Assembly (NCBI GenBank): GCA_044892505.1
Contig: CM097883.1
Span: 415,958,001 to 416,022,000, forward strand
DNA from: Schmidtea nova
Lineage: Eukaryota
DNA length: 64,000 nt
Reading direction: 5' to 3'
Below are positions 1 through 21,514 of the stretch, piece by piece. The notes beneath the pieces are model-generated. The model saw only the letters and a program-made list of their open reading frames with translations. It ran no database searches and was not told where the DNA came from. Every line of letters begins with the position of its first letter. The first letter of the stretch is position 1. The translations under genes and the position numbers were made by a program.

Positions 1-1007
1 AGCCGTAGTTAGCGTAATTTCATCCTCATAAAGCATGTTCATTCTTCAGTATGACGACTGACACCAGCCAACAGCGAGAACTGGACAAGGCCTGGAGACT
101 CCACCGAGCGTTGGAAAAAGAGCTGAACCAGGAAAAAGCGTTACGTGCTAAAGCTGAGGCACAAATTCAGTATTTACGAACCAGTTGGTTCGCCCCAGCT
201 CGTATGAAAGAACAGATGAGCCGAACGGAGAGAGCTCAAAAGACCGCGGATGATTATTGCACGGAATGGGAAGCAACAAAGATTGAGTTACGCCGATGTC
301 TCCATTCCGTGACGACTTCTTTCATCGATTCTGATTTACGGTCACAAATTCGACCCATCACCTACCAGAAATGGGTAGGAGAACAGAAAATGGCCTGTTT
401 GGTCAGTACCGACACTGACGGTCTCGAAGCGACAACGACTCAAAGTCCGACGGAACCTACAGTTATACCGATTCACGTCGAAAAAATAAAAAAGAGAAAA
501 CGAATCGGCTCCAAGCGTCGACGCCAAAGGAAACTGTTCTCCCAGCCGCTACAAGCGCAAGTGAACAATATGGCAGAAATGTCTGAAGCAGAATGGCTAT
601 CAGAGATATTTCCTCCCGAAGGGATCTTCGCTGAATTTTTAGTTAAATAAAAGTATTGAATGTTACCAGATTCCGGTGTTCTAATTTTTGTTCTTCTATT
701 TTCTTTATTGTTGCGTAATTAATAATAAGTAAATTTTACAACCACACGTTCACATAACAAATAAAATAGCGTAAGTCCTTCTACGGCAGCGTGAACCCGT
801 AAACATAAATGGGGAGTAGTCCTAGCAATAATGCTCACCTGCCCATCATTGTTTAACCACCTTGCGCATCACCAACTTGGTTATCAAGGGAAATAAACAA
901 AGGCGCTCGAGTGAGATTTCGCGGAAATTTATGCATGATCATGGACGGGGAATCCCTAGCCATCGTTAGAATTTTCATCTAACCCCTCCATGAGCCCAGC
1001 ATAAATT
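1..1007 (+). repeat. Distal part of putative 5' LTR (U3 end, R, U5)
   Basis: AATAAA at 646-651 followed by a T/GT-rich downstream element (~680-715); ends ...CCCAGCA(1001) just before the PBS. No second copy is in the window to confirm it. Confidence 0.55.
51..650 (+). CDS. Hypothetical 199-aa protein in the putative LTR; N-terminal coiled coil, basic NLS-like KIKKRKRIGSKRRRQRK
   Basis: Open ORF preceded by acceptor-like TTCATTCTTCAG|T|ATG; its stop overlaps the AATAAA. No homology recognised. Confidence 0.5.
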   Translation: MTTDTSQQRELDKAWRLHRALEKELNQEKALRAKAEAQIQYLRTSWFAPARMKEQMSRTERAQKTADDYCTEWEATKIELRRCLHSVTTSFIDSDLRSQIRPITYQKWVGEQKMACLVSTDTDGLEATTTQSPTEPTVIPIHVEKIKKRKRIGSKRRRQRKLFSQPLQAQVNNMAEMSEAEWLSEIFPPEGIFAEFLVK

Positions 1008-1025
1008 TGGGGGCTCAGCCGGGAT
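1008..1025 (+). promoter_or_regulatory. Primer-binding site complementary to tRNA-Pro
   Basis: TGGGGGCTCAGCCGGGAT matches the canonical tRNA-Pro PBS TGGGGGCTCGTCCGGGAT at 16/18 positions. Confidence 0.75.
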
Positions 1026-1405
1026 CAACATAGCTTTTATCGGAAATTGTGAATGTAAAATCTGCAGAGAATTTTAAAATGCTCTCGTTTTTGTGTGAGA
1101 AAATGAATCGAATAACAACGGAGAGTTTTAATAATTAAAAATTCAACTTCTGTACAAAAACAAATAAAAAATATAATAGTAAATGTTGATACTACCAATA
1201 GATAATAAAGTGAATTTATAAAAACATAATAAAAAACAGAGAAATTAAACAAATACAAATGAAGTCATAAATAACATGTCGGGATGACAATTTACTGAGA
1301 CACGGGGGGAGTTGTTAAATATTAAAATATGCAAAACGAAATATATTACTACTTTGAAATAATGATGAAAATAACAAACAATTAAAACAATTAATTATTT
1401 AGTAA

Positions 1406-1867
1406 ATGGAGGAAAAGCTGAAGGAAATTGAGGAATTTTTCAACAAGGAAAACGAGACATTAGGAATAATTTGCAAGAAAATAACCCGATTGAGAGAATC
1501 CGAATTTCAGGAACCCACAACACAGACCGAGGAAACAGACGAATTAATAAAGATCATAGAGAAAACAAGTAACATCGACATAAATACTCGTTACAAATGG
1601 TATAAAGCGCGACTAGAAGATGCTGATCTGAACATTAGGTGCCGACAAATAGAACAACGATTAACCCCAACATATAATCGATGGATGGCGCAAGGGGTAA
1701 AAGCAGCGAAAAAATACCGACAGTGTTATATATGTGAGGACAGCGAAATACAAATTATGTTTTTACCTTGCGGACATTTTCGTTTTTGTAAGATTTGTGC
1801 AAACCAGTGCGACCGATGTCCTATGTGCAACTTTACTGTGAATGAAAAAATTGTGGTTTATTTATAA
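1406..1867 (+). CDS. IAP/XIAP-type C-terminal RING finger protein (C3HC4 E3 ligase), no BIR domain
   Basis: CYICEDSEIQIMFLPCGHFRFCKICANQCDRCPMCNFTVNEKIVVYL closely follows the IAP RING pattern at the extreme C-terminus. The ORF is intact and intronless. Confidence 0.85.
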   Translation: MEEKLKEIEEFFNKENETLGIICKKITRLRESEFQEPTTQTEETDELIKIIEKTSNIDINTRYKWYKARLEDADLNIRCRQIEQRLTPTYNRWMAQGVKAAKKYRQCYICEDSEIQIMFLPCGHFRFCKICANQCDRCPMCNFTVNEKIVVYL

Positions 1868-2316
1868 TAAATGTTTAGAGTTAATTAACAAAATATCGAA
1901 TAATGAAGTCATGGGAACAATTATTTTAGTTAAATAATTTTTGAGCTACTACAAAGAATCCATTGGGAGGTACCGGTTGATCAACCCACTCAGGATGTAT
2001 AGAAAGGGGCCCATCGCAAACTTTGGAAAGTTTTTGTGATGTGATTGATCACCACATCCCGCATTAACGGACCAACGCGATCTTTATGTATATTTTGGTT
2101 GGGGAGAGAGATAGGGAAATCTTGATGAAGTAAGGCGCGCATAGAAAAAATTTGAAGCAGACTGATCAGTGAATAGTTACGATAAAATAGAGAAATAAAT
2201 AACATTAGGAGGTGCATAATCAGCTCGCATAGAAGTAGTTATAACTCAGCTGAGACATTTAAGTCGCTAGCGAAGTTAGGAATTGTGAGTAACCGGTTAG
2301 GGAAATTTGTTAGATA

Positions 2317-2680
2317 TTGTCCTTTGAAACAAAAGTTTATGCGAGGTTGTCCCTTGAAACAAAGGGTTATGCGATGTTGTCCCTTGAAACAAAGGGTTAT
2401 CAGCGGGTTGTCCCTTGAAACAAAGGGTTGAGGCCAATGAGCCATATTGAATGACCTAGCTAGGCATAATTGGGAGATATTAATTTGAGGCCAATAGAGC
2501 CATTTGAGATATTAATTTGAGGCTAAAAGAGCCATAGAGAATTATAGAGTTATCCGGATATATAGTAACGGAGGGAATATAGGCCCAGGGTTACAATTGT
2601 TTGAATAGCAACGGAGGGAATATAGGCCCAGGGTTACAATTGTTTGAATAGCAACAGAGGGAATATAGGCACATAGTTGT
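2317..2680 (+). promoter_or_regulatory. Tandem-repeat enhancer/promoter-like block upstream of gag
   Basis: Four ~30-bp units (TTGTCCCTTGAAACAAAGGGTTAT) at 2317-2432; GGCCAAT boxes at ~2434 and ~2491 in a ~35-bp duplication; TATA-like GATATATAG at ~2558; ~46-bp repeats at 2565-2670. Confidence 0.5.
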
Positions 2681-3126
2681 AATCGTCGACGAGATTAAGA
2701 ACAGTGCGCACTAGTAGTTGGGAAATGCGAGTAAAGCTGATTATGCGACCTAAGTAATGCATGCAAGGAGAATAATGAAAAATAGGAGCTGACCGGAGAA
2801 ACAGGCAGAAAAAGTAAATGATAGCTAGCAACGAATAACGAATAAAGACGATAAAAAAATAAGTGAGTCAAAAACGACACAGGGAATTAGAGCGCTCAAA
2901 CGACCAATAAATTGGGAAACCAAGGGAATTGTTAATTGAATTGAATTGTTAAACGATAGATAATTATTACGACCTAAATAGATAATTGTGACTAGTCTAT
3001 ATATAATTTAAATAGACTAAAAATAAAAGGGAATCTGGGAATGGGGAAATAATGAAAAACCCAGTGATAAGTAATCCCGAAAGAAAGGGAATAAAAGCGC
3101 GACGATGAGGACATTTGTATTTTAGG

Positions 3127-4963
3127 TACACAAAACAAACCAATCAACCAAGCAAGAAGAATCAGAATACGATAATATATAAGATAAGAAAATTGATAAT
3201 CTAAAGGAAATCCCGCTGAGAACAGGAACAATTAGTGTTGTAATAAAACCACCCAAAAAAAAAGACGTCAGTAATATCAACAAAAAAGACCCAAATAGTA
3301 TTGTAACAGAACCAACAGAAAAGAAGAAAGTCGGCAAGGATAGCAACAAAAAAGAACCAAAAGGGAGTAAAGCGAGGAAGATAATAATAGAAAAGTCGAT
3401 TATCGAAAACGATAAATTATCAGTAACAAGCAACAGTTCAAGCAACAAAGAAAACCAAACAGAACCCAAGAAAAACCAAACAAGTGAAATAGAAATCGAC
3501 GAAACCAACAAAGATTATATCGAAGTAGAACAAGAAGTAGAAATTGACGACATCGATAACGATAGTAAAGCATCAGAGAACGAGCCAATAACAGAGAACG
3601 ATCTAAATCTAAGTGAAACCGAAAACGAACATAACAACGAACTAGAAACAAGAGGAAACGAAAGTAAAACAACTCAAGACAGCGGAATCGAAATGAGCGA
3701 ACCAAGAGAAGAGATAAAAGATAAATTTCCGGAGAACCGTTTAATGGAGATGCGAGCAAATTGGAGACTTTTCTAAAGGAATTTGTCATATTCGTAGAAG
3801 TATGCAAATGGAAACCCGAAACGACAGTAAGCAGAATTCAATTATATTTAAAGAATAGCGCATTGAAGCGAAAAATGGATCCAATTCACCTACAGATTGG
3901 CAAGAAATAAAGGATTTTTTCCAACAAACCTTTGGAATAAACAGAGTTCTAAATGAGGCATTCACAGAATACTCAATGAGAAAACAAAAGATAAACGAAT
4001 CAAATGCAGTATATGCGAGTGAACTGAAAAAGTTAGCAAAGTTGACTTTTAATCAAAACAGCCCAATAAGCGATGAGTTAATGGCAGCCATCTTCATAGG
4101 AGGATTAAGAAGACCAGACATAAGAGCACAATTTGGATGTCAAGGGTGCAAAACCATAGATCAAGCGTTAGAAACAGCGAATAGATTCGAATTACATATG
4201 ATAGGAAGTGAGGGCAGAATTTACTTAGCCATGGACACAACGCAAAACGAACAAGAAGTAAATCTTAACAATCACATCCCAAATTCGCAACAGTTAAACC
4301 GACCACCACCTCAACGAAGGAATGAAGGGAATAAAGTACAAAACTTCGGAAACCAAAACAATTACAGCAACCAAGGACAAACAAAACATTGTAAAACATG
4401 TGGAAAGTTGGGACACTGGCAACAAGAATGTTATCAGAACTTGAATTGCGGAATATGCGGAGTAAAAGGACACTCAGAGAATAGATGCTACACAATAACC
4501 TGTTTTAATTGTGGACGACCTGGCCACCGATCAAGAAATTGCGGACAAAGAAGCAATCAACGAGGAAATTGGCAGAGTAATTGGAAACCGACAAAATTAT
4601 AGAAATCAACCAAATAATGGAAACCGACAAAATTATGGAAATCATCCACAAAATGGAAACCGACAATATTACGGAAACCAACAAAATAATAATAATAATA
4701 ATCAGAATTAAACCACCACCAAGGAAATACATCTGATGCAAGAAGTCCAAAGATTGACGGAACTTATGAATAAGACAAGAGGAAATCCGCAAACCGGTCA
4801 ACAACAAATCAACATGATGAGAAAAGTAGAAAGCGAAAACGAACGATTGAATCAAGAAAGCCAGGCACGACATGCTCAAGAATGGGCAAGAATACAAAGA
4901 GAGGATGAACAAAAACAGCGGGAAAGAGAACGACAACCGATAATGAAAGTCGAAAAGAAATAG
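3127..4963 (+). pseudogene. gag: Gag: acidic/basic N-terminus, capsid-like domain, three CCHC zinc knuckles, N/Q-rich tail; frameshifted
   Basis: FNGDASKLETFLKEFVIFVEVCKWKPET capsid-like motif at ~3740; CKTCGKLGHWQQEC, CGICGVKGHSENRC and CFNCGRPGHRSRNC in ORF 3976-4602. Confidence 0.9.
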
Positions 4964-5016
4964 TAAAAGAAGAGAAAGAAGCAGAAAAATAAGTAGAGAA
5001 GAAAGTCGAAAAAGAA

Positions 5017-7400
5017 GTGAATCAAGAAGAGGAAAGGAAAATTTGGAAAAGAGGAATGATGGTAACCATGCCAAACAATCATGTGTTCCGATTCCAATAT
5101 AACGCCAAAGAAGAAGTGGGTATATTGTTCAACAAAGTGAACAAGATGATTCTAGGAGTAACAAAACTACCCAGAGAAGCGTTCTTACAAATAGAAGATG
5201 CGCCAGAAGTGAAATTGGAGCAAACTGATATATGGGAAGATAGAGGAGTAACAGAGACGAAAAGAAATGTAATGATCATCAAAGAAGTGAAACCAGAGAG
5301 AATTCCACCACCAGTATATCACGAAACACGGATCAGCCGAATATTCAAAGGGAAAATGATACGAAGACGGTTGAAAGAAATAGACGAGTTGGAGAGGAAA
5401 ATGAGAAAAGTTGAAGTAGTAGATGACAAGAGTGAATCAACACAAGAAACTGTCAAAAGCGAAACGAAATCAAAGGAAAATACACAGAGTGAAACGGACC
5501 AAATAACACATATTAATATGTTAAGAAACTCCACAAGAGAATTTTCAGATGAGGAAGGTAACAGCGACGTCAGTAGTTTAGCAGGAGATTTACTAAACGA
5601 ACCCGAAAACGAAAACAAAGGTATAAAAGTAGTAAAGACGTCAGAACCCATTCAAATAAAGGTAGATGAAATTCAGAAATTATTAGATAACGCATTGGAA
5701 GTGATGTATAACACAGAATTAATTGACAAGAAACGATATCGAAAGTTTATGAGGGCAGTACTACGAATGAATTACAAAGAATGGTTACAAGACCGAGAAG
5801 TAGAAATGCTAAATCGATACGTGGGAAAACTAATAGAAGAACCACTCCACGAATATATAATCTTAATGGAGATAAAAGACTGTTCACCAAGGATCTGGAT
5901 CAAAACTCCACTCAAGGATGATATTTACCAATGAGAAGACAGACTGGGGAGTTCGTATAAAAACAAATTCATCTATTCACAGAATGGACTAGTGAAGAGA
6001 GGGATGCACATGGTAAAAACAGGCATATGGCCAGGAGAAGTAACAACATTATCAATATGCGATAATAAGAAAGAAGAAAACTTACAAGAAGTGGCAAAGG
6101 AAGCGAACACGTGTTTCGAGATGAGGATAAAACCACAGTTAGATGACGAGAAAGAGTGGAGTTTACAAGGAAACTTAAATTCTATGATAGAACAAATCAT
6201 CCAACAAATCGGAAAACATAGAAAGGAGTTAATGAGAAACGAATACGAAAAGTTGAAACAATGTATCGAATGCATACGCGACACAAGTCATACGAGAATG
6301 TCACAGATCAAATATGGTAAATTAATCGCAAAAATGGGAAAGGCAATGTTCAGACAAGGAAAAATAACGGATCTGAAAATCTCAGTGAAATAACCTAATG
6401 AAGAAACAAAAGAAATTGAGGTAATAGCAGATTGTACTATAGAAGAATTAGTAAATGTCATCAATGAGACACTACTGCAAAGAGAACCAGAAGACGAGTG
6501 GGAAGACGACATAATCATGAAATACAACGAACATGCATTATTGGATCACGATGAAAGACGACTTTATAAAATTGGTATATGGGATAATTACCAAACAATC
6601 CACGTTATCAGAATGGATGATACAGCAAGAGAAACTGCAAAAGACGAGGAAAGAAGACAAGAACGACAAAAAGAAGTCATGCACAAATTAAGGCAAATAG
6701 TAGAAATTTATCGGAATTGGCAGATAAAGCTAGAATGGGAAAAAGTATTAGGAGATTTCAATCTCAACAGACGACGACTAACACCAGTAGGAAAACAATG
6801 GAATGATCGAGGAAAATGTTGGGAACCAAAAGAAGGTGAATATGAAGAGGGATATAAAATAGGAATGGAAGACGACTACAAACCAGAAACGAAAAGAGTT
6901 TGCATGGTGACAAGGAAAATTATGCCAACAGATCAAGATGGACCAGAAACAGAAGCTATATGGTTAGAAAGGGAAAAACAAAAAACGGAAGAATTTGTCG
7001 AAATATTAAAGAGCAATGCGCACGGTAAGAGACGATTAGTAAAAGGTCTCGCAGAATTTTTTATAGCAAACGGAGAAGACATAACATGCTTGCGCAAAGT
7101 AGCAAAAGCAATCGCAGAATAAAAAAGAGTTAACGAGTGGTGCCCAGAGCAATTAGATCACGTAATTAGGAAATGGAGAAATCAAGAATTCTCTCAAGAA
7201 TCACCACAGAAAGTACATTTAAGAATAATATATCCGAACAAGGACAAGGAAGTGTTTTGGGTAGGAATAACAGAGAAAATTCGAGATATTAAAGGAAAAT
7301 TGAGATATGAACTACCATTCCATTTACAACACCAAGGACGATCATTAGATATTGGTATGGAAATCGGGATAACGCCAGCACAACTATATTTCATGAATAC
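5017..7400 (+). pseudogene. Polyprotein segment with three ubiquitin-like domains (~5056-5280, ~6373-6612, ~7213-7395)
   Basis: ORFs 5017, 5992, 6517 and 7252 share one frame separated by single stops. KISVK*PNEETKEIEVIADCTIEELVNVI..YNEHALLDHDERRLYKIGIWDNYQTIHVI and VHLRIIYPNKDKEVFWVGITEKIRDIKGKL..LQHQGRSLDIG follow the ubiquitin pattern; the first domain is weaker. Confidence 0.55.
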
Positions 7401-8039
7401 CTGGACAGTGGAAGCGACAGCGGGTCAACCATTGAAACGTAAAGAGGAAAACAGGAAACCACACGGAAGTACAAGTACGCAGAGCCCGATGAAATCAGTA
7501 TTAACGCCAGGAACAAGTTCAAGACGACCCGAGACATACCGAGGGAAACCAGAGAAAGGACTCCACCACAACCATACGATGTGGAAGAAATATTAACGGA
7601 TAGCGACGACATGATAGAGGAGTTAACCGAATTAACAAAGGAAAAAGACGATAACATTTTCGAAAGAATACAAGAACTACCTAGAACAATAAAAGTAATC
7701 AATACCGGAAATGAAGTCGAACAGGAAATAATAATAGAAGAAGTAAACGACTTATCAGAAGAAGAAACAAGAAGAACAAACGTAGAAAATATACACTTAA
7801 CAAAAGAAATGGAAAGGTGGTTAGAAGAAAGAGCTAACGAACCAACAGACGCCACGGAAGAAACCGGACGAGCAACAAGACTTGTGGAAACAGATACAGA
7901 TAGACGACCCCGTGAGAGACCCAAGACAGATCCAGCGAATATAGTTATAAGAAACAAAGATGAAAAGAGGCAAGATCAATGGGAGTTATGCTTAAAGAAA
8001 TTAAATAAAATCGCGGAAATAAAAGAAAAAGAGACAACA

Positions 8040-8450
8040 CAAATGTGTCAAGGTGAGGAATGGATATCAAAAATAATAATGGAAATATTGGCGATAATTG
8101 ATCCAGAATTAAAAATATATTGGCGAATAAACGAAATAAGTGAAAGGGCAAAGTCATTACATAGCGCAATCGCACGAATTTTACCAGAACTCATAAAAGA
8201 AAATACAAAATCAAACCACTTAGACTGGCAAAGAACCACTACGGTAATAAAGAAACTGACAAAAGGGGCGGAGACGGATAACAAATATTTAATAGCCATT
8301 GCGTACACTATTTACAATCTATTGACACTGAGTAGAGGTCGACCAAAACCTATTGCATTAGAAAGACATATAAAGAATACAGCCAAAATTATAACAAGAG
8401 AAATAGAACCGTACGTCATTAGCAAAGGAGGATGGGAAACATTTACCAAA
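8040..8450 (+). CDS. Bcl-2-like domain within ORF 7581-8849
   Basis: BH1-like NHLDWQRTTTVIKKL and BH2-like ITREIEPYVISKGGWETF (cf. Bcl-2 LNRHLHTWIQDNGGWDAF). Confidence 0.7.
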
Positions 8451-8569
8451 ACCAATCAAAAGAAAACTCAAGCCAAGAATATGAAAAAGAAATTCGAAGA
8501 AATATTGGGAGAGTTGGAAAAAGTACAGTCAGGAACAGGAAACGCAAAATCGTCATTGAATCTGAATTC

Positions 8570-10441
8570 AATCATAATGATGATGTTAATATGGACGATT
8601 AGCACCGACGGAGCAACAGCGTTTGAAGTATTCGATTGTGATCAAATGGCATTAGGTGAGAAATATTCATTACGAGGAACAGAACAATGTAAAGACGCCA
8701 CGCCAACAGAATTAAAAACATTACAAAAGAGACAATTGTACCACGTATACCAGGAAGCGGAACTGATAAGAACAATGGTTAGAGAATGCAAAATTTATAA
8801 ACAAGATTCGCTTTTTATTGTGGACGAGGACACTACTCTGCATTTGTGATGCCAGGAACAGAAAGAGAATCAGTAATGCTACAAGGAGAAGACTGCGAAA
8901 AATTGTTCAGATACGGTGAAATAGAAACAAGAGATAAGATAAAATTAAAAGGGATAGTTGGAGCGATAATACAACAAACGTTATATGTAGCAGGAGCGAT
9001 CACATGAGGAGAAGGTTATTGTCAAGGATCAACTTAGCCTATATTTGGAGTACCAGCAACAAACTTAGTGGTAATTGACACCTATACAGTAGAACTTAAA
9101 ACATACGAAGCGTTTTTCGATCCAATAACGGGAGAAATAAAGACCCTGCCAACGTGTAAAATTGAAGCTAGTACCTGCCAAACTGGTATGTCAACTCTAA
9201 CATAACAGACACGAGGAAATGAATGTCAACTACAATTTTTAAAGGAAGCAGAATTCGATGAAATTCAAGGGAAAACATTCCAAGAAGAAGAGGAGAACGA
9301 AGTAGCGAGAGGAAAGATTCTCAAAGAAACAGTACAAGAGAGAAGGATCGAAGCACGAACACAGGAAAAGCAAATCAAGATGAGAAATACCCCAACGGTA
9401 CTAATCACCTCAGATGCGGATGTAGGGATGAGATTCGTAAAAGGGAAAACAGCCTTAAAATGCGGAGTAGCCATGTTGGAAACCAACTACCCCGTTATTT
9501 TTGTATCAAGACAAGCGGTACCTAATGCAAAACGTCAAGTAAACACGAACGATGTTAAACTACACCTCTACGTGAACAATAAAATGGACTTCCTATGTCA
9601 CAGAGGACAAGCCTCATTACAAAAAATATATTACGACCTAATCAACAACGATTGTATATTAAATAAAGAAATACTGAAAACAAAATTAGCAGTAGCTATC
9701 ACAAACCCGGACAGTGCAATGCCACTATTACCATTGAGAGAAGGTCACTTTGGAAGAGTAGTAGGCGAAGTTATGTACGTATATATATGCAAAAAGACAA
9801 ACGCAAATGTTGCAACTGCGACGAAATTACAACCAGGACAATGAACAAACGAATTAGAAATAGAATATAAAGGAAAAGTGAGATATGTACAGCCAGTAAC
9901 AAGAATCATAAATCCAGTAAGCTTCGAGCCAAATCGTTTCAATTGTAGTAACGCATATGGACCACTATATCAAAAGCCAGATGGTAATTGGGTTATGTTC
10001 CATTCAAGAACAGAGGTACCAGCACCTAGAGAGTTCGAATTAATGCAATTATCGAAAGGACGGAAATCCAAAGATGTAGATGTAAACAATATGGGATTTT
10101 ACAGTGCAAAAGATCTAGAAGCGGCAAGACAAAATATATTATTTCCAGCAAGAAGGGAAGCCGTATTATCCAGCATCGTAACCATAACAGGAGGAACAAA
10201 TTACCAAGGTGGACCAAATTATGAGCTACTATTATCACCGACTCATTTTAAGAAAGCAACCGAAAATATGATAAAAGCGATGTGGGGAAGGTTTTTGATT
10301 TTTGGACAAATGATGGCAGGAATACTTGGCGTCATATTAATACTACAAATAATACGAGTAATAATAAAGCAAATGCTCGCGTGTTTTGACATCTACAAAA
10401 GAGAAAAGAAAGTCAACTGGAAATTAGTGGTAAGATTCTAA
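8570..10441 (+). pseudogene. env: Env-like class III fusion glycoprotein of chuvirus/herpes gB type, with one frameshift (~8815) and several nonsense codons
   Basis: Signal IIMMMLIWTISTDGATA|FEVFDC; then VRECKI, YCGRGHYSAFV, GEGYCQG, GHFGRVVGEVMYVYICKK, VRYVQPVTRII, GFYSAKDLEAARQNILFPARREAV and TM WGRFLIFGQMMAGILGVILIL. The motif order matches chuvirus-type glycoproteins. Confidence 0.8.
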
Positions 10442-10591
10442 GTAGTAGGACGAAAATTTAAAAAGATAATGAATGATGAGCAAGCAGGAAAACAGCTTAA
10501 GAAAGAAAGAAAAAGACTGTGGGAAAGAGTAAAAGGATAAAGAACCCAAGACGATTCAAGTGACGACGATGACGACTACAAAGGAGGTCAA

Positions 10592-12960
10592 ATGTATAAG
10601 AACCAAGCACCACAATACATTGAAAAGAATCCAGTTGACGCATGGAAATGTTATGCACCTCCACCAACAATGTATCAAGAATCACCACAAGGAGGAAGAA
10701 CTAATACGATGCAAATGATGCCAATGACGAATATATACCCTATGATAACGGAAGACTATAAAATGAGAAGATGCAGAAGCATGGATCCGCAAGGAGACGC
10801 ACATACCATTGCCGTAATGTCATCAAACACAGGTCCAGTATTAACCACAACCATAGAAATTAACGGAAGGGAAATTGAAGCAATGATCAACACAGGAGCA
10901 AATATTTCCGCATTAGACATTAAATGGATACCACAAGAACAAAGACAAGACATCGAAAGGACGAATGTTCACGTAATCGCATATAGCAAAGAAATCGTAG
11001 AAGTCGAAGGGAGATGGTGGGTAAAAATACGACATTTAAATACAGAAATCGACACCTACGTGGCAGTCATACCAGTGTTAAGCGTACCTTGCATTATTGG
11101 AACAGATCTGATGCCAGCCTTATTTAAAGAAATAGTAATTGATCTCGGAACAATGAGATTAAAAGACCGCACAGGACAAATATGCGCAATAGAAGCAAAA
11201 GTGACCAGTTCAAAGCAAATAATTATACCAGCAAGAAAGGAGAAAATATGTTACGTGAAAATAGACCCTACCATCAAAGGGGATATGATTTTTGAACCAA
11301 GTAAAAGATTCGAGAAAAGGAAGGCGTTGCCAATGGCAAGAGGATTAGTCAACATAAACGATAATTGAGAAATCCCAATAAACGTAATAAACTTCGATGA
11401 AGATAAAATAATCTACGAGAACGAAAGATTAGGTAAGTTAACCCCAATGATGAATATCGAACTACCAATAGAAGGGGAAGAAAAAGGTAAAGAACCCTCC
11501 TGGAATATTGATAGTGAAATATTAAACGAGGATCAAAAGAAACAGTAAGAAAAACTTCTGATAGAATACAAGGATATATTTGCAGCATCCGATTTAGATC
11601 TAGGTACATGCGATGTCACGCTACATACAATATCATTGACAGACGAAACACCAATCGCGTTAAGGCCATACAAATTAGCGGAGGCACAAAAAGCAGTAGC
11701 GGAAGCAGAGGTGCAGAAAATGTTAGATGCAGAGGTAATCGAACCAAGTTGTTCACCCTGGCAATTTCCAGTGGTAATGGTAAAGAAGAAAGACGGAACA
11801 CAGAGATTTTGCATTGATTACCGGAGATTGAATGCAGTAACAAAACGAAACACTTACCCATTACCAGACATTAATGAAATGCTATTAACATTACAGGGAG
11901 CAGCCTATTTTACATCGCTAGAATTGAAAAGCGGATATTGGCAAATAAAAATGAAGGAGGAAGACAAAGAGAAAACTGCCTTTACCATTGGTAGAGACTT
12001 GTACCAATTTCGTAAAATGCCATTCGGATTAACAAACGCACCAGCATCATTTTAGAGATGCATGAATTTCGTAACCCATGGAATAAAACAGTGCATGGTC
12101 TACATCGATGATTTATTAATTTACTCCGGTACGCTCGAACAACACATACCAGATATTCGAGACGTGTTCGTCAGACTCAGACAATGGAAGTTGAAACTCA
12201 AGCCATCCAAATGCGATTGGGCGAAAGAAAAAGTAACATTTCTGGGACATATAGTGTCAGCAAAAGGAAAAGAACCAGACCCTAGAAATATAGACAAAGA
12301 AAAAGAATGCCCAATACCAAAGACAATAACACAGATACAAGAATTTCTCGGATTATGCGGATATTAAAGGAAATTTATAAAGGATTATGCGGGAATCGCA
12401 AAACCCATACAGGAGCTAGTTAAGAAAGATGTATCATTCATATGGGGAAACGAACAGCAAACAGCCTTTGAGACGTTGAGGGATAAACTGATAACTGCAC
12501 CCATAATAGTTCACCCGGACTTCAAGAAGCCATTCTTACTTGCAACAGATGCAAGCGGATATGCAGCGGGAGCAGTGTTAGGACAATACGACAACGAAGG
12601 AAAAGAACGAGTAATCGGATACTATAGCCGAACATTTAAGAAACATGAGAAAAATTACTCGGTAACAGAACGAGAAGCGCTAGCAATCATACTAGCAATA
12701 AAACATTTTAAATATTTATTATGGGGACACATCATCTGTATAACGACAGACCACCAACCACTTGTATGGTTAGGACAACATAAGGAAACATCCAGTAGGT
12801 TAATGAGATGGGCAATGCAATTACAAGAGTACTCACCGAATATAAAATTCTAATCAGGACGAGCAAATGCCAATGCAGATTGTATGTCAAGATTGACATT
12901 TCCGGAATTAACCGATCCTGAAGTACATACGCAAAAGGAACGTACAAAGGAAATGACATA
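10592..12960 (+). pseudogene. pol: pol: aspartic protease (catalytic D>N), reverse transcriptase, RNase H; Ty3/Gypsy type
   Basis: EAMINTGANISAL; RFCIDYRRLNAVT, LKSGYWQI, MPFGLTNAPASF, MVYIDDLLI; LATDASGYAAGAVL, YSVTEREALA, TTDHQPL, RLMRWAMQLQ. One frame with nonsense codons. Confidence 0.95.
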
Positions 12961-13888
12961 GTAATCATAAAAAGAAAAATGCCAGTAGCATTTTTATTAC
13001 CAAAAGACGGAATATTGCCAATACATAGAGCATTACGAACAGACAAGGAGAAGAAGGTAATTAAAATCGCCCGACTAATGCAAGACTGCTGAAGTGATAT
13101 GAACATGATAGACGAGAAAGGAGATACCTTTATGGTGTTTGCAGCAAGGGCTAAAACGAAAACAAAGGTGTTAGAGGAATTACATAAAGCAGGTGCAGGA
13201 CTTATAGAAAAAACGGATAAAGATAACTCAATCCTAGATGTAACATTATTAACACATAACAGGGAAATGGTCAACTTCATTAAAACAATCACAAATCAGG
13301 AAGAAATAGATTATCTAACTAAAACTGTCAAAAAAACTCAGCATACTAACAATGATGCACAACGTCGAGCTAACAGAAGCAATACTTAATTGGATAAACC
13401 CAGATACCAACAAACCAGCGTTCAGAATTAACGAGTTTATAGAACAGAACCAAAACTGGTGTATGAGAAGTGCATTAATAACTTATAAGTGGCCAGAGAT
13501 ATTAAAAATTTTTATGGAAAGAAAGGATCTAAGAATCACCAACAACCCGAAAGAAGAGAAATATACAGGCAAATGGAAAGAATTGATGAGGACATATATA
13601 AACAACTGGATCAAAGCCAAGAAGGAAATTTTGGAATACAAATCCGCCAATAAAGCTATACCTGAGCAGATAGAAACACAGGAGTTTAAAGCAACTAACC
13701 TAACAACATTAGCTTACGCAAAATTGATAGAAGAAATCAATGTCGAGGATGACATTTTTAACGAACCAAGGGGAGGTGACACTACAGACAGCGACGACGT
13801 TAACAACTCGGAAAACTCAGAAGACCACGAACCACCCGATAAAGAGGACAATGAAGGGAAAGACAAGAAGAGACGACCAAGAAAATAA
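12960..13888 (+). pseudogene. Unknown domain at the position where integrase normally lies
   Basis: Coding-like frames 13099-13389 and 13352-13888 continue from RNase H; no HHCC, DDE or GPY/F motif. Confidence 0.5.
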
Positions 13889-13939
13889 AAACGAAACCAA
13901 AAGAACAGGTTATAAACAAACTGTAAACCAATTTTTCAG

Positions 13940-15885
13940 ACCAGAGCTACTATTATTAACAGTAATTATAACCCTAATTAGTCCAAGTCAAGGAATGATA
14001 TGTAGAGAAAGGGCGTTAATACGGATAGCAAACGCAAAAGGAATCGAACGAGTCTGTTGGTCAAAAAAGGACAAAATCTCTGGTCAAAATAACCCGATGG
14101 ATTGCAGAATCTCAATATCCGAACAAGAAACCATAGAGATCGAAGACCTAGATATGGAAACCTGGTATAGAATATGCACCGTCAGAAAACCAAAGGATCC
14201 TAAGTCACATAAGATAATCGCATGTAAAACATACCAAACACCTAAAGTGACCATGACCAGACACCAGTCACCCGAAGGAGACTACGTCGTTGAAAATTGT
14301 AGAGGAACAGAAGCACCAGAAACGAAAGACAAAAAATCACAAGCAACAGATAAACAAACAACGACAGATAGACGGAATACAACGGACAAGCCCGAAACAA
14401 GAATAGCCACAAATCAAACCGAAAGAGTGACTTACCAAATGGAAGGATTATGTTTAGCACTCATACTAGTAATGATAAAACGATTGGAGGAAGGAATAGA
14501 GATTGACACTATAGAAATGATGGATGTAGAAGATACCTGAAATACCAGCGTAAAATGTTGGGCGAAGAACAATGAGGAAATCGGGATAAACAAAGTAGGA
14601 AAAAGTCAAAAGCTAGCCACGGATAAAATAACAAAAATATCCAAAATAAAAGCGGACAGGACGTATAAACTATGCCTGCTGGAAAAGGAAAAGAACAAGA
14701 AAGGTACAATAAATTGTAAAACATTCCAGCCAGGAGAAGTACTTAAGTTCAAAAGGAGAACAAGACGGAGAAATAAACAAACCAAGCAAAAGATAACTAT
14801 AATGCTAAAAATAACAGGAATAGAACCGGAGGTGAAAGGAGTATGCTGGAGGAATTACGAGAAGAAAACAAATAAAAGAATGACACCCCAATGCCAAACA
14901 AGCACAGGAACAACTACGATACAAATAAAAGGTTTTGAAAGCAAACAAACCTATGAAATATGCCTAGTAAGGAAAAGTGATCAGATAACCATAAACGACC
15001 TAGAATGCGGGATATACACAACTTCATCCGGAACAAGAACTAGAAAGATAACACTAAAAAATAAAAGAAGACAACGAAACAAAGGAAAACCGAAGCATAC
15101 CACTACTTTTAAACACGAGAAACAACCAACAAACCAAGAAAGTAAAACAAAACCCGAGAACGACCTCAGCAACTCTTATATTATGGAAAATAGATAATAA
15201 AACATTAGAAATATGTTGGTCAATAACCCAGAAACAAACAGGCAGGCTACCACGATATTGCAGAAAAACAAAGGAAGAAATTAAGATCGAAAACCTACAA
15301 TTTAATAGGGAATACGAAATATGTGCAATAGAGAAAACGGACTCATTAAGAAATCAACAAGAGAGATGCGAAACGTACTATACACCAGCAAACGCGACAC
15401 CGAAAGGAATAATAAGGAAGCTTGAATTTAAGGAATTAAGCCAAACAACAGAACAAATGGATGCCGAAGAAATAATAATAAACCCTCAAGCAAAATGGAC
15501 ACCCGAAGAAGTAATCAAAGAAGTCAAAAGAAAACAACGGAAACGAGAACAGCTGATGAAGAAACTAAAGGGACAATACGGACTAATGGTTAATCGAAGA
15601 AAATTGATACAAATAGACGTTAACAAACAAATCAGGGAAGTAATTGGCTTAGGAATACTAACAGCAAATATACCAATAATAATCGCATTATTAGTAATAT
15701 GGATGTGTGAGGTAAGTAAAAAGAAACAGACAGCCCAATGGCCAAATATAAATATTACAAACTATAAAATTGAATTACCAGAAGAAATACAGAAAGAATT
15801 TCAAAGAAGGACGAAAGGTAAGGAATTTTGGAGACAAATAGAAGATGAGGAGAGATACGACGAAAAGTTAGTAACGATTGTATAG
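13940..15885 (+). pseudogene. Type I membrane protein: signal peptide, four Cys-containing FN3-like repeats, TM helix, short tail
   Basis: LLLLTVIITLISPSQG signal; four repeats CW...(I/L)xxLxxxxxY(R/K/E)(I/L)C...CxxYxT at ~14050, 14550, 14838 and 15208, like FLRT/LRFN-type FN3; TM VIGLGILTANIPIIIALLVIWMC at ~15641-15709. Confidence 0.6.
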
Positions 15886-15893
15886 GGGGCGGA
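15884..15893 (+). promoter_or_regulatory. Polypurine-tract-like sequence
   Basis: AGGGGGCGGA overlaps the last polyprotein stop and is followed by TG (15897) and TGTAAAT (15901). Confidence 0.5.
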
Positions 15894-16010
15894 TTATGAC
15901 TGTAAATAATAGTGTAAATAACAAAGCATTACCGAAATAGTATGGGTATCGATATTATAAAATGTGTAAAAAGAGAAAAATAGAAATTAATTGATGTATA
16001 TAATTTAGAA

Positions 16011-16310
16011 ATGAATGAACAAGACGAAACAACCGAAATAACTATGGCAATGAGATGGAAAGCACAATTTCACTTATTAGTACGAACAATTAACTCACTA
16101 CAAAATCAATTAGCGGAAAGACAAAATTTACTATCTGAGAGTTATAATAACTGCTTCGAACAATTACAGAGGATAGAGAAACAACAAAGATTGATAACAG
16201 AACTCACAAGAGAAAATCAAACGATAAGCAACATAAATCAAAGACAAGCAGTAGAAATAAATCATTTAACAAGAGGAGAGAGAGAGAGGAATCAGAAGAA
16301 GGATGGATGA
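16011..16310 (+). CDS. Hypothetical 99-aa coiled-coil protein
   Basis: Intact ORF, heptad-like composition, preceded by TTTAG|AAATG. Confidence 0.5.
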   Translation: MNEQDETTEITMAMRWKAQFHLLVRTINSLQNQLAERQNLLSESYNNCFEQLQRIEKQQRLITELTRENQTISNINQRQAVEINHLTRGERERNQKKDG

Positions 16311-16460
16311 GTTGGGTAATAAATAGATTGCATAATGATCTAGAACCGGATTCAACAAGCGAGCCATAGATAAACAAAGCGGAAAAATTGTAAATATGTA
16401 AAAATAAAAACAAGAAAATCAAAAATAAACAACAAATCGAATGTATATATTATTGTAGAA

Positions 16461-19006
16461 ATGGATAAAGAAGAACGAGCAGTCGAAATTTTGAGAGCTG
16501 AGAACAGGAAATGGAGCAAGAGGCTCACCTGCGGAAATTGTAACAACTTACTACGAAAACCTAGACAAACTATATGTGGATGTAGAATATGTACTAAATG
16601 TGTACAAGAATTGGGTGTAAAAAGAATAACAGCATGCCCAGAATACAAAGAAGGAAGAATAGTGTTAGACGAAACCAGACCGGATAGAGCAACGCAGAGA
16701 GATTATGAGCACAATAACTGAATGTGTAAACACACCTTGTATATGGCAAGGACAAATAAGCGATTTGGAAAATCACATGGAAAATTGCGAAGAAAAGAGA
16801 ACCGAATGCGAGAAGTGTCAACAGACAATAATTCTAAAGAATAAAGAGCAACACAAGGACGAATGCAAGGAAGAAGAAATTTCATGCGAATACTGCAAAA
16901 CTCGAGAAAAAAGGAGGAAATCGAAGAGGAACACCTGAATATAACCGAGGAGAAAGTATGAGGACAATATGTAAGCATATGTCCAAACAAATGTGAAATA
17001 ACAGAAGAAATAAAGTTACACGAACACTGGAAAGTATGTACTGAAAGACCAAGAGAATGTCCATATAACAAACATGGATGCAAGGAGAAAAGGACGCGAC
17101 AAACAATGAAACAACACTTGGAAGAAGCATCGCTAACGCATGTTGAAATGACAAACGAAACTACAAAAGAAACGGATCAGACAATTCAAAAATTGCAAAG
17201 AGAAATAGAGTCACACAAGATAATGGTAAGTAGACAGTTATGTGGAGCATGAGTCATCGCAGAACAAAGGAAATGACGTCACCCCCCGGGGGGGTTAGGA
17301 ATTTTTTTATGACTCATCGATGACGTCATCGATGACTCATCGGCATGACTCATCGATGACGTCATCGATGACACATTTCAAATTTGAATTTTATGACGTC
17401 ATCGATGACTCATTTCAAATTCAAATTTTGAATTTCCAAAGGTCAAATAAGGTCAAACCTTCAAACAAGGGTATCATTCGAAAGGTCTTTGAGAGGTGCA
17501 CACAATGGTCATACCCTCGATGGTCTATGGTGTGTCCTTAACCTTCAAAGGGTCAAAAACCTTCAGATTTTTCAAACCTTGTGTGTAATACATCATTCGA
17601 AAGGTAATACCGATGTGCACACAATGGTCATACCTTCGAAGGTGTATGGTGTGTGCTCAACCTTCAAGGGGTCAAAATCCTTCAAATATTTTTAAACATT
17701 ACAAGTTATATATCAAACAAAAGGTAATTGAGATTTGAGTATGATGGTCAACCCTCGAAGGTGGGTGGTCGACCTTGGACCCTTTAAGGGTATGACCATT
17801 GTGTGCACCCTTCAATTACCTTTTGTTTGATACATATATTATATAGTTTTTAAAATTTTGAGTCTTGGACCCTTCAAGGGTCGACCACCCACCTTCGAGG
17901 GTTGACCATCATACTCAAATCTCAATTACCTTTTGTTTGATATATAACTTGTAATGTTTAAAAATATTTGAAGGATTTTGACCCCTTGAAGGTTGAGCAC
18001 ACACCATACACCTTCGAAGGTATGACCATTGTGTGCACATCGGTATTACCTTTCGAATGATGTATTACACACAAGGTTTGAAAAATCTGAAGGTTTTTGA
18101 CCCTTTGAAGGTTAAGGACACACCATAGACCATCGAGGGTATGACCATTGTGTGCACCTCTCAAAGACCTTTCGAATGATACCCTTGTTTGAAGGTTTGA
18201 CCTTATTTGACCTTTGGAAATTCAAATTCAAAATTTGAATTTGAAATGAGTCATCGATGACGTCATAAAATTCAAATTTGAAATGAGTCATCGATGACGT
18301 CATCGATGAGTCATAAAAAATGTCCTAACCCCCGAGGGGGGGTGACGTCATTTCCTTTGTTCTGCGATGACTCATGCTCCACATAACTGTCTACTATGGT
18401 AAACCTACTATTAGAAACAAGAGAACAGTTCGAATTAACACGAGAAAATATGGAGAAAAAGATAAAAGCCATCGAAGAATTGGCCAAAGGAATGAAAATA
18501 CAGTACAACAAAATCACACAGGATACCGAGGAAAAACTATCAGTCGCACCATATGTATGGAAGGTAACGGATTTCAGAGACAAATTAGCGGACGCACGAA
18601 ATACGACGAAAACAACAGTAATAAGCACACCATTCTATCTATGGAAAAACGGCTGTAAAATAAGAATGAAAGTTTACCCAAATGGAGACGGAAGAGGACG
18701 AGGAACACATGTGTCGATATTTTTCGCATTATGTAAGGGAGAATACGACGATTTAATAGAATGGCCCCTGGAAGTAGGAGTCATCGTAAGAATCAGAAGT
18801 ATAAGAAAAATGTGGAAAAATTCTTTGAGACAAGTAAGCATGCGAGTACGAGCGAAAAACCAACAACAGAATGTGGATTAGCAGCTGGAGAACCAATGTT
18901 TATAATTCAAGAAAATATATTGGAACTACTATATGCAGACACCTTGTATATAGAAATAGAAAGAAAAAGAACGGACGAGAAAGCAGCAAAGGGATGGTGG
19001 ACGTAA
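16461..19006 (+). pseudogene. TRAF-family protein (RING, TRAF zinc fingers, coiled coil, MATH), intronless, frameshifted and split by an insertion
   Basis: CGNCNNLLRKPRQTICGCRICTKC RING; CVNTPCIWQGQISDLENHMENC and CPYNKHGC zinc fingers; YVWKVTDF..STPFY..GCKIRMKVYPNGDGRGRGTHVSIFFALCKGEYDDLIEWP MATH. Removing 17229-18395 plus one TSD rejoins ESHKI-MV-NLLL in frame. Confidence 0.92.
17229..18395. mobile_element. Non-autonomous Polinton/Maverick-type element made almost entirely of two ~520-545-bp TIRs
   Basis: Termini AGTAGACAG...CTGTCTACT; 6-bp TSD ATGGTA (17223-17228 and 18396-18401); arms ~17229-17774 and ~17879-18395. Confidence 0.75.
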
Positions 19007-19119
19007 TGAAATAGATAACCGTGTAAACAGTATGTATAGTCAAATACCCAAAAATATAAAATAAACAAAAATATAACTGAAAAAAATAAACTGATTAAAA
19101 TTTATCTGTAATTATAGAA

Positions 19120-20181
19120 ATGGGAAATATAGAAGTATGTTTACATGAAATCCCCATACACCAAGATGAAGCTATTAGTAAACACTTGGAACAAATTGAA
19201 ATATGGATCAACGCATATTACCGAAAACATGAGGAGTTTGAGAGACAAGCCGAAGCACTAAAAGAAGCAGAGAAACTAAATCAAAGAAGTCGAGAGAAAA
19301 TAGAAGAAGTATACAAAACATTAAAACAACAAAATGAATATTACAGAGGAATGATGAAAGAACGACGAGAGGAAAGAGATAGACAGCAGATAAAAACCGA
19401 CCACAAGATTCATTCAATTACTGAAGAGGCAAGATACTGCAAAAAAGAGGAGGAAGAATCCTACAAGGAAGCAAGAGAGATAATAGAAAGGACAGCCTAT
19501 AGTGATGATTGGAAGCTATATAAAGAGATCGACGAATTAAAAGAGGAATTAGGACAGAAAATCAGCCAAGAAGTGTCAAATAAAAGATGGAATAAAAAGA
19601 GACAGCAATTTATCTGGGAACAGGCAAAGAAAATTAAAGAACTAACTTATCAAGTACAAAGAATGGGGGAGGAGTTAGCTAACCAAGAACAACTGAAAAA
19701 TATGCTTACCGGAATGTGTAATCACAAAGAGGAAAATATGAAAAGAGACATAAATGGTTACCAAGGAGTGATTACCCAGAAGAAAATAGAATTGAAAAGA
19801 ACCAGAGAAAGACTAGAAGAAGCAAAACAGAGTTATGAAGAAAACATAACCAACTTGACAAAAGAAAACGAGGAACTGAGAAAGAGGTTGACAGAGAAAC
19901 CAATACAGACAAAAGAAACAAGCATTACAGTAGCAGTAACAGAAATGATGAAAGAAGAAGAGAGAAAGACAAAGATAGCAGAATTAGAAAAACAAATAGA
20001 AACACTAACAGAGCAGGCAAACTACCTAGAATATTTATTGGACGAAGAGATTCAGATATCTCATATGTACCGAGACGAAGTTGAAATGTGGAGAAGCACG
20101 GTAGTATGGATGCCACTCCCCATGAACCAAGTGGAACCTCAAGATGAAGGTTTCCACGAACCAAACGAAACCCTAGTGTAA
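19120..20181 (+). CDS. Hypothetical 353-aa coiled-coil protein
   Basis: Long intact E/K/Q-rich ORF preceded by TATAG|AAATG and followed by TGTAAATAAA. Confidence 0.6.
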   Translation: MGNIEVCLHEIPIHQDEAISKHLEQIEIWINAYYRKHEEFERQAEALKEAEKLNQRSREKIEEVYKTLKQQNEYYRGMMKERREERDRQQIKTDHKIHSITEEARYCKKEEEESYKEAREIIERTAYSDDWKLYKEIDELKEELGQKISQEVSNKRWNKKRQQFIWEQAKKIKELTYQVQRMGEELANQEQLKNMLTGMCNHKEENMKRDINGYQGVITQKKIELKRTRERLEEAKQSYEENITNLTKENEELRKRLTEKPIQTKETSITVAVTEMMKEEERKTKIAELEKQIETLTEQANYLEYLLDEEIQISHMYRDEVEMWRSTVVWMPLPMNQVEPQDEGFHEPNETLV

Positions 20182-21514
20182 ATGGAGCGGAAACTAACTG
20201 TAAATAAATGATGTAAAATAAGTGTCAAGCTGTATTGACCTATATGTAAAGAAAGAGATGAGGAAGTTAATAGAAAGAGTTAAAAACAAACGATTTGGTG
20301 TTTTATGATATCAGAAAAGAACTTGTAATCTGTTGTATTCGTGTTTATATTTATTTCCTTGCATTATTTCTGATTATTATTGTAATACATAAGCAATAAT
20401 TGTGAGGTTGTAAGACTTTTTGATGTTAGAAGAAATTAAGAAAGAACTTTAAGAAGAGGAAATTGATGTAGATGAAAAGACAAGTATTCCGATCTATGAA
20501 TATGTTTAAGATGATAAAGAAAATCCAAAAGCTAATCAGGACTTATTTTAATATCAGAAGCTAGCAGGTTTGAACAGAATTGCACTACTATATAAAGATG
20601 CTTACAATGTTCACGATTATTAATTTATCCAGAAATCAGTTGGCATACTTCTGTTATTTTGGTTTCTCAAGTTTATTGCACAATTCTATAGATATCCGTC
20701 TATACAATTTTGTGATTTTATAATTTTATATCAAGTTCTACTCACGAATTATTTTTTAAAAAATGAAATGTCAGATTTGCACTAGCCTTATAAAAATAGC
20801 ATCACTATTGTTGAGGATACATAAATAATAAAATTAAATAATATCATAAATAAAATGATTGGGTGAGAATTGATCGAGTAAACGATATGATGCTCAGGAA
20901 TTCGTAGAAATGAATGAAATCGAACAATAAAGTAAAAGAAGGTCATTGCTAATTAACAACTACAAAATAATTCATTACAAAGATTAGCTTCCGAGACTTT
21001 TTACATAAAAAAATACAAACCTTCCATCAACATTCAATTCGCACAAAAAAATAATGTTAAAAAAAATTTTTAAAAAATTTATTTTCATCCAATAAAATCA
21101 TTATAAAATATAAAATAAATAATTATATAATAATATAACGATTGAAATAGACACTTGATAAAGGCTGTGCCGAAATATTGTGTTATTGTTTAAAAAATTG
21201 TGATTTATAGTTTTATGGAAATTATTAATATTTTTTATTTATTAAAATTTTTAATTAATTACTATTATTTATTTAATATTTATTTATTTCAAATTTATTA
21301 ACTATATAATAAGTAGATAATAAATATAATAAATATTTAATATTAATATTTGTGATGAGTTATGAATGTATATTATCTTGTTGTTATTATTCAATTTTTT
21401 TATCCGTATTTTTATTGTTTTCCATATTTTTATTGATTACCCGGGTTGTTATGTCCGTATTATTGTGTGATTGCGGCAACGTCATGTTACCCCCACTTTT
21501 TATGTTGGCTAATT

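Follow-up and report, generated by a model that had tools for sequence, protein, structure and literature searches.

A decayed copy of a Burro-type giant Ty3/Gypsy element with candidate cell-death and signaling genes in Schmidtea nova

The first 20,266 bp of the window, the 64,000-nucleotide stretch of Schmidtea nova DNA that we analyzed, comprise a single decayed copy of a Ty3/Gypsy family with a length of ~28 to 30 kb. With a probability of roughly 70%, we interpret it as the defunct, truncated remnant of a giant Burro-type element that was active until recently and whose intact copies would encode one polyprotein of ~5,000 residues, likely cut into separate products, as well as TRAF and RING proteins likely to damp death and immune signaling. 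A sequence-only reading of this DNA had proposed one giant enveloped Gypsy-like element with an apoptosis, ubiquitin and TNF-signaling cargo, and had named the absence of that cargo alongside reverse transcriptase (RT) in other copies as one result that would refute it. All cargo parts were found together with the RT in five of five complete copies (c to g), and the cargo of this family is under purifying selection.

Extent and decay of the window copy

Positions 764 to 20,261 of the window are colinear with the complete copies; the features described here and below lie on the positive strand unless stated otherwise. By copy comparison, positions 1 to 1001 represent the 3' third of the 5' LTR, which in full measures 2,964 bp, starts 1,963 bases upstream of the window (L001:7538), and contains a coiled-coil ORF (18 to 650). 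A primer-binding site (PBS) is readable in the sequence at 1008 to 1025, 6 nt past the LTR end. The site had been called tRNA-Pro, which is its putative type. ARAGORN detected no tRNA genes in the window.

The decayed single polyprotein gene occupies 3183 to 15885; compared with copy d, it is interrupted by 17 in-frame stops and shifts frame 10 times. A deletion of ~2.5 kb, with its junction at 12920 to 12935, has removed the integrase (IN) and the first ankyrin block. The TRAF gene is split by a foldback or MITE insertion (17229 to 18395, no strand assigned), and intact copies are free of this insertion at the same TRAF site. The copy is truncated at 20255 to 20270, with the loss of the last accessory ORF, the plus-strand priming region and the 3' LTR. 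Neither a 3' LTR nor a terminal polypurine tract (PPT) was found within the window, and the earlier claim of a PPT bounding the element there does not hold. The earlier reading had not mentioned the in-frame fusion in intact copies, the ankyrins, the loss of integrase by deletion, the MITE or the LTR at 1 to 1001. Contigs from two sequencing runs span the stretch.

The nested MITE and the deletions in the window copy might suggest a chance accumulation of unrelated insertions and host genes. However, the order and spacing of the parts were identical in all complete copies, in one reading frame, which refutes chance nesting and leaves it a negligible probability.

Polyprotein domains and accessory genes

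Young copies contain a single frame of ~5,140 codons, which holds gag, ubiquitin-like (Ubl) domains, a Bcl-2 fold, a class III env, protease (PR)-RT-RNase H (RH)-IN, ankyrins and an FN3-like membrane protein. The frame is 5,138 codons long in copy d, and the commonest open frame among genome copies has 5,140 codons from stop to stop; 33 of the 70 scored FN3-region matches lay in stop-free frames of at least 5,000 codons (hand count). Words of the form I/M-N/A-M/V-L/M-R/S recur at the domain borders of the polyprotein.

The gag and protease-RT-RNase H read from the sequence were matched. Domain search and copy comparison placed the Gag capsid and CCHC knuckles at 3728 to 4575, and PR, a spacer, RT and RH lie at 10832 to 12892. 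The spacer is putatively dUTPase-like, judging by its position in the literature only. The order PR-RT-RH-IN is present in copy d, with IN deleted from the window copy, in which a second ankyrin-like block follows at 12952 to 13630. The class III (Monjiviricetes/gB-type) fusion glycoprotein (8619 to 10438), with its C-terminal TM, was likewise confirmed, with matches to PF24664 at E values of 1e-18 and 4e-25. The env signal peptide (8544 to 8621) comes after the Bcl-2-fold domain, and hydrophobic segments are found at the start and end of env and at the TM of the FN3-like protein.

The three Ubl domains proposed earlier fared unevenly. Putative Ubl1 (5041 to 5289) was recognized by pattern only, and library searches gave it no support. 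Ubl2 (6370 to 6621) found weak support in Pfam (Ubiquitin_4, E value of 0.027), and three beta-grasp families match its homologue. Putative Ubl3 (7234 to 7422) shows the pattern and occupies the position of Burro's Ubi2/SUMO-like motif; its PDB match reached an E value of only 0.59, the predicted model left it unfolded, and alignment against P0009 gave no match. A conserved four-helix domain (6964 to 7230) is kept in all three giant families.

The Bcl-2-like domain (7965 to 8477) matched PDB Bcl-xL in a profile search (E value of 0.002), and all 45 Foldseek rows listed were Bcl-2-family structures with probabilities of 0.99 to 1.0 and E values of 0.004 to 0.03, none of the 45 being below 0.001. 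These matches confirm the Bcl-2 fold. BAK/BAX were among the structure matches listed, and Bcl-2 folds can be pro-apoptotic. The Ubl-Bcl2 region gave no usable match in Atlas and a single match in the representative library, P0090, a relative with MATH.

The polyprotein C-terminus (13932 to 15882) consists of a signal peptide, four Cys-containing FN3-like repeats, a TM and a short tail. The FN3 identity of these repeats, proposed earlier, is putative, with sub-threshold scores: a best score of 0.86 in Atlas, a lead only; a Pfam fn3 E value of 0.14 in the window's family (1e-4 in family X, described below); and a best E value of 0.59, to contactin-4, for a profile of 11 FN3-like repeats against PDB. 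A single-sequence fold of the region was unusable (pLDDT of 37). Among longer proteins, no homologues of the FN3 region were found, which is weak evidence. Our literature search returned no description of an FN3-like tail; two primary Burro papers (2018 and 2026) may have it.

A 153-aa accessory ORF (1406 to 1867), open in the window copy, encodes a helical N-terminal part and the IAP-type RING noted earlier. The C3HC4 RING was recovered with an E value of 3e-11; BIR was absent from this ORF and from nine ORF stretches of copy d. A 118-aa coiled-coil ORF (16011 to 16366) precedes an intronless, full-length TRAF (16458 to 19003) made up of RING, zinc fingers, coiled coil and MATH (E value of 1e-17 for MATH). 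This TRAF is real but sits inside the element, rather than just downstream of it as first described, and is broken in the window copy. A further coiled-coil accessory ORF (19120 to 20181), open in the window copy, ends in ETLV, presumably a PDZ-binding-type motif.

Complete copies, related families and possible roles of the cargo

In the complete copies, dN/dS lay at 0.04 to 0.40 in all cargo regions for which it was defined, with saturation of some dS values. Insertion of the family was recent: LTR pairs are 99.7 to 100% identical, and a 4-bp TSD was present in five of five complete copies. The LTRs (TG...CA) span 3.0 to 3.3 kb and are accompanied by a tRNA PBS. Copies d and e measure 28.4 kb and 29.7 kb, respectively, and RT-RH is 99% identical between their subfamilies. 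Four further copies, counted outside these five, showed rearrangement or truncation, had no pol or were fetched only in part. No long purine run was found ahead of the 3' LTR in family copies; the site has a conserved palindrome and a G/C motif, absent from the window copy. Because it folds no better than shuffled sequences (z of -0.3 to -0.9), we term the palindrome a motif, not a hairpin.

A quick RT tree, from which 7 of 96 rows were dropped for weak or short (<330 columns) alignment, retained 89 rows, none of them a named reference for Burro, Mag, Osvaldo or Vesta. In it, the family grouped with 12 database proteins (2,100 to 4,100 aa) in which env and pol likewise follow one another in frame (SH-aLRT of 92). 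This grouping would fit a truly infectious, horizontally transmitted flatworm virus, with the copies as endogenised proviruses and the cargo as viral immune-evasion genes. So would the intact env (signal peptide and TM) under purifying selection, the accessory arrays and the LTR-encoded ORFs, and a provirus hypothesis was raised in PMC6431247. We nevertheless consider such a virus unlikely: spread within the genome fits both the hundreds of copies in the germ line and the flourishing of a sister that has no env, and PMC13524379 reports that env diverges along with pol and host.

Two related giant families reside in the same genome. Family S (~25 to 28 kb; 29 of 40 sampled elements) is devoid of gag, env, RT and IN and carries a BIR-RING IAP and TRAF. 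Its LTRs are common to the autonomous, Burro1-like family X, which has neither of these two genes, and S is likely mobilized in trans by X. The BIR-IAP was on S wherever its context was seen and never on the window's family or X. LTR derivatives of the LARD/TRIM type are non-autonomous, keeping LTRs and PBS without replication genes and needing a helper. Family S resembles them in all these respects but keeps about nine intact ORFs, including a protease with a DTG motif; the ORFs tested (PR, ankyrin, TRAF and BIR-IAP) are under purifying selection, with pN/pS of 0.10 to 0.43. We found no description of an S-type sister in the literature; the two primary Burro papers may have non-autonomous forms. 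Smaller gag-Bcl2-env-pol families in this genome, with no TRAF, RING, ankyrin or FN3 homologues, have also reached identical LTR pairs. Thus, most of the cargo is dispensable for transposition.

Under the Burro-type reading, the element's own PR and signal peptidase likely cut the polyprotein, releasing the capsid, the fusion protein and the enzymes of replication together with a Bcl-2-fold protein anchored in the membrane and a surface protein of FN3-like type. The env signal peptide may double as the membrane anchor of the Bcl-2 domain, and Pol would face the cytosol, beyond the env TM, until freed by PR. The separate TRAF and RING genes likely damp host-cell death and immune signaling. The cell-death and signaling genes likely help host cells to survive, and the cargo may protect cells making and receiving new copies. 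Env and the FN3-like protein may serve cell-to-cell transfer inside the animal. Against this explanation stand the pro-apoptotic potential of Bcl-2 folds, the unsupported Ubl1, the weak Ubl3, the sub-threshold FN3 scores and the cargo-poor smaller families. The window's family also lacks BIR, the part that binds caspases and is credited for Burro1 (PMC13465017).

The missing BIR would also suit a cargo that mainly helps the element itself to assemble and traffic, through scaffolding and budding that depends on ubiquitin, and not the cell to survive. Ubl, ankyrin, RING and TRAF are generic ubiquitin/scaffold modules, several of them fused into the structural polyprotein. We find this improbable: family S, with no particle proteins, keeps its PR, ankyrin, TRAF and BIR-IAP under selection, and the Bcl-2 fold is retained even in small families.

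Beyond the single element, we tentatively entertain, at odds well short of even, a multipartite reading of Burro in this genome, as an enveloped retrovirus-like system that divides labor among a helper (X), a co-packaged satellite (S) and the all-in-one window family minus BIR, S being a mutualist of helper and host, not a parasite. X would give capsid, envelope, enzymes and the FN3-like surface protein, with no 3' accessory genes. The ten-fold more abundant S would be co-packaged with X, with which it shares LTRs and leader around an old, divergent interior, and would sustain the stem cells of the host through its BIR-IAP, its TRAF and its secreted or membrane proteins. Alongside that family's own TRAF, the FN3-like protein of the window family may function as an adhesion receptor or a decoy. 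By placing MATH/TRAF, BIR-IAP and the FN3-like protein differently, the three families provide a natural experiment on cargo retention, in which an anti-apoptotic gene credited with aiding regeneration rides on the most numerous element, itself unable to self-copy. If this holds, selection on host-protective cargo is separable from selection on replication, and the idea of a mutualist transposon is therefore testable.

Comparison with known elements

The gene combination had been put forward as not known to be described, and as possibly that of a Burro relative. The second view prevailed: the other refuting result named in that reading, an already annotated family with the same content, largely applies, since the architecture is of the Burro type already published for planarians and hence not new. 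Burro/GYPSM1 carries MATH, BIR, ankyrin, BCL2-like and Ubi2/SUMO-like domains, and an env of mononegavirus type, in frame, separates its gag from its pol (PMC6431247). The window's family shares with Burro1/GYPSM1 and Burro-2 to -4 of Schmidtea mediterranea a length of ~30 kb, multi-kb LTRs, one ~5,000-aa ORF with gag (CCHC), Ubl (putative in the window's family), BCL2-like and mononegavirus-type env in frame before PR-RT-RH-IN, and ankyrin and MATH/TRAF cargo (PMC6431247). Unlike in Burro1, its MATH is not in the polyprotein but near the 3' end, in a full TRAF gene of its own; unlike Burro1/GYPSM1, it has no BIR. The domains corresponding to Burro's Ubi2/SUMO-like domain give weak scores only, and the FN3-like membrane protein ending the polyprotein has no mention in PMC6431247. 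Family X, with MATH inside ORF1, is closer to the Burro1 layout.

A Burro-like element of Dugesia tigrina, compared by description only, similarly has a 5,140-aa ORF1 without MATH and MATH_TRAF_C in an accessory ORF, which is described as upstream, whereas that of the window's family is downstream (PMC6431247). For the Burro1 IAP, the accessible part of PMC13465017 gives a tested anti-apoptotic role and, via Lee et al. (2026, Dev Cell), presents B-IAP as a BIR+RING IAP on Burro with reported stem-cell protection; here, by contrast, the BIR-IAP is on the non-autonomous family S wherever its context was seen. The accessible account of GAG-ENV-POL HSV/gB-type errantiviruses, including Smed_errantivirus_1-6, describes no cargo and has no occurrence of "Burro" in its main text (PMC13524379). 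These errantiviruses share gene order and env class with the window's family, and its env piece was closest by eye to that of Smed_errantivirus_5, at ~44% identity (hand count).

A decayed giant element in the window and its intact relatives

The decayed copy filling window positions 1-20,266 carries plus-strand Pfam matches to a C3HC4 RING, gag knuckles, a Monjiviricetes fusion glycoprotein, protease, RT, RNase H and MATH. This region is A-rich, with a composition unlike the remainder of the window. It begins within the 5' LTR (1-1001, plus strand; the full LTR is 2,964 bp and starts upstream of the window), and the PBS (1008-1025, plus strand) follows this LTR portion. The sequence-only reading had ended the element at a PPT and placed a TRAF gene just downstream. 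Both placements were rejected, because no second LTR copy is present in the window and likeness to relatives runs on to about 20,266 and stops there; TRAF is thus internal to the element. Compared with an intact relative, the window copy has its frames interrupted by 17 in-frame stops and changed 10 times; a 2.5-kb deletion has taken out the integrase, and a 1.17-kb MITE splits TRAF. The leader that separates the RING ORF from gag is non-coding and contains short tandem repeats (window 2300-2700). The LTR encodes one or two ORFs of 160-210 aa that are kept across subfamilies and gave no Pfam match (window 18-650; L016:4971-6401, elsewhere in the genome).

A DNA search of the S. nova genome returned 781 candidates, and the 40 scored matched at 81-91%, the window itself aside. 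Complete copies span 28-30 kb, with TG...CA LTRs of 3.0-3.3 kb and 4-bp TSDs. LTR-pair identity is 99.7-100% in four copies and 96.5-98.9% in the one nearest the window copy. In the intact reference copy, a single frame of 5,138 codons encodes gag, a long middle region, env, PR, RT, RH, IN, ankyrins and a C-terminal membrane module (signal peptide, four Cys-rich repeats, TM and tail). A RING-only ORF lies 5' of this polyprotein. On its 3' side come two coiled-coil ORFs, with a full intronless TRAF between them, and then a small membrane protein. One subfamily, with a frame of ~5,650-5,690 codons, has a diverged second copy of the entire signal-repeats-TM module.

All cargo parts were present in 5/5 complete copies, a count that sets aside four further copies that were rearranged, truncated, partly fetched or pol-less. 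When the FN3 region was searched, 33 of 70 scored matches fell within stop-free frames of at least 5,000 codons. Between subfamilies, dN/dS was 0.04-0.40 in every cargo region having a defined value. The cargo set of this family is heritable, selected and recently mobile, and the window element is well supported as one real element, not loose parts.

In one copy of the window family (L112, L075, L113), RT-RH-IN has been removed in frame, gag-env-PR-ankyrin-FN3 is open, and the LTR pieces are short and identical. Several copies adjoin Polinton/Maverick-like gene blocks (L059, L064-L065, L098), which from sequence pattern we take to encode ATPase, integrase, capsid-like protein and polB. Window 21398-27047 holds a separate small Gypsy element with inverted arms of ~880 bp (92%). 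Among 10 other copies, 5 have direct LTRs, 2 have inverted arms and 3 have neither; almost none of the 10 matches the arm in the window.

Cargo domains

The six-sequence profile of the Bcl-2 region matched Bcl-xL (E 0.002). Its structural model (pLDDT mostly 65-85) matched Bcl-2-family structures only, among the 45 matches listed, with TM at most 0.71 and none at E <0.001. For the FN3 region, the ten best named Atlas matches share a family or clan, but with a top score of 0.86, and Pfam fn3 gave E 0.14 in the window family versus 1e-4 in family X, an autonomous Burro1-like sister. The C-terminal repeats are likely, but not proven, to be FN3-like. Three ubiquitin-like domains had been claimed: the second was borne out weakly and the third by pattern, but the first found no support. 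The RING, read earlier as IAP-type, does resemble IAP RINGs (42% to the BIR-IAP RING), although its ORF is without a BIR.

A confidently predicted four-helix domain precedes the third ubiquitin-like domain (window 6964-7230). It is kept in all three giant families and in database protein P0090, with no fold match among the matches listed. The C-termini ETLV, ETIV and ETFV (window 20167-20181, L063:3256, L107:5391), presumably PDZ-binding-type motifs, end a coiled-coil ORF in two families and the polyprotein tail in the third.

Sister families S and X

A BIR search of the genome gave 1,295 candidates; 150 were scored, most within a 399-codon ORF. Two such loci proved to be LTR elements of 25-28 kb that share their PBS and the start of their LTR with the window family, and they define the non-autonomous family S (L055-L058, L061-L064). 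Both carry a RING ORF, TRAF, a BIR-RING IAP, and coiled-coil and membrane ORFs. A further ORF (1,053-1,070 aa) encodes Ubl, protease, ankyrin, a signal peptide and one FN3-like repeat; gag, env, Bcl-2, RT and IN are absent from both. With the S protease region as query, none of the 133 scored matches lay in a frame longer than 1,091 codons. Upstream of 20 BIR matches, picked for differing scores and frame lengths, we found the S layout in 16, TRAF alone in 2 and nothing in 2, with RT or IN in 0/20. Purifying selection acts on S genes (pN/pS 0.10-0.43); in one pair, the BIR-IAP has 13 nonsynonymous changes in 961 sites versus 18 synonymous in 236. Accessory genes of S and the window family share 30-38% identity.

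Family X (L106, L070, L118, L107, L108; L109-L111) encodes a polyprotein of about 5,006 codons, with MATH inside it, as in published Burro1, and FN3 repeats at its end, terminating in ETLV. Two X copies were read in their entirety, and neither has 3' accessory genes or a BIR. S and X share LTRs that match at 75-94% in blocks, as well as the RING gene (dS 0.14). Their protease, Ubl and ankyrin parts differ at dS 1.3-1.8 and diverged long ago. Neither family had a blastn match to the LTR of the intact reference copy.

The three giant families have an LTR-to-PBS spacer of 6-8 nt and, in place of a classical polypurine tract, which none of them has before the 3' LTR, a 17-nt palindrome with a G/C motif (L016:3665-3692; L063, L107). 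The palindrome, immediately 5' of the 3' LTR, was counted 2,987 times, against 0 for the reversed control; 483 of these are the window family's variant. The first 40 sites comprised 29 S, 8 window-family and 3 X elements; among the 8, RT was in the stretch read in 4, 1 was pol-less and 3 were interrupted. If the 29:3 ratio, which comes only from 15 Mb of a single contig, holds for the remaining 2,504 sites, there would be roughly 2,300 S and 200 X elements. S elements have near-identical LTR pairs and TSDs. Together with the shared cis ends and the enzymes missing from S, this suggests that X mobilises S in trans. Least certain of all is whether S in turn helps X or the host.

Burro kinship and a possible role for the cargo

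The Burro/GYPSM1 ORF (4,873 aa) contains gag, MATH, Ubi2/SUMO-like, BCL2-like, ankyrin and BIR regions, with a mononegavirus-type env in frame ahead of PR, and a 5,140-aa relative has MATH in an accessory ORF (PMC6431247). GAG-ENV-POL gB-type elements have been catalogued in flatworms (PMC13524379), and a 2026 study, as cited in PMC13465017, reports that the Burro1 BIR-RING IAP protects stem cells. The window element is a variant of this already known Burro kind, and the homology points to a planarian host. We file it as a Burro-like family and not as Burro1. In an RT-RH tree of unnamed relatives, the window copy clusters with its own family and family X (SH-aLRT 100). A wider group (SH-aLRT 92) takes in 12/12 database proteins having in-frame env, as well as two smaller env families of the same genome. 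Our literature search, conducted without the primary Burro papers, did not find such a partition of cargo among three families, in which a numerous non-autonomous one carries the IAP; this distribution is the part worth following.

Its layout, read against what is established about signal peptides and retropepsins, suggests that the polyprotein threads the ER. The env signal sequence, directly after the Bcl-2 fold, would leave that fold membrane-anchored. The protease would release Pol, predicted to lie on the cytosolic side after the env TM, by cutting at words that recur at the domain borders, and export of the FN3-like protein would depend on a later signal peptide. TRAF, RING and Bcl-2 would dampen signalling for death and stress in producer cells.

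In twelve database polyproteins, most of them unnamed, env is in frame ahead of pol (P0004, P0006-P0014, P0016, P0027). The protease is present in extra copies in several of them, and P0009 combines ubiquitin and ankyrin with a membrane protein at its C-terminus. Two gag-Bcl2-env-pol families of ~15 kb (L039-L041, L043-L045) have frames of 3,401 and 3,393 codons, LTRs of ~0.86 kb, a different PBS and one unknown 3' ORF.
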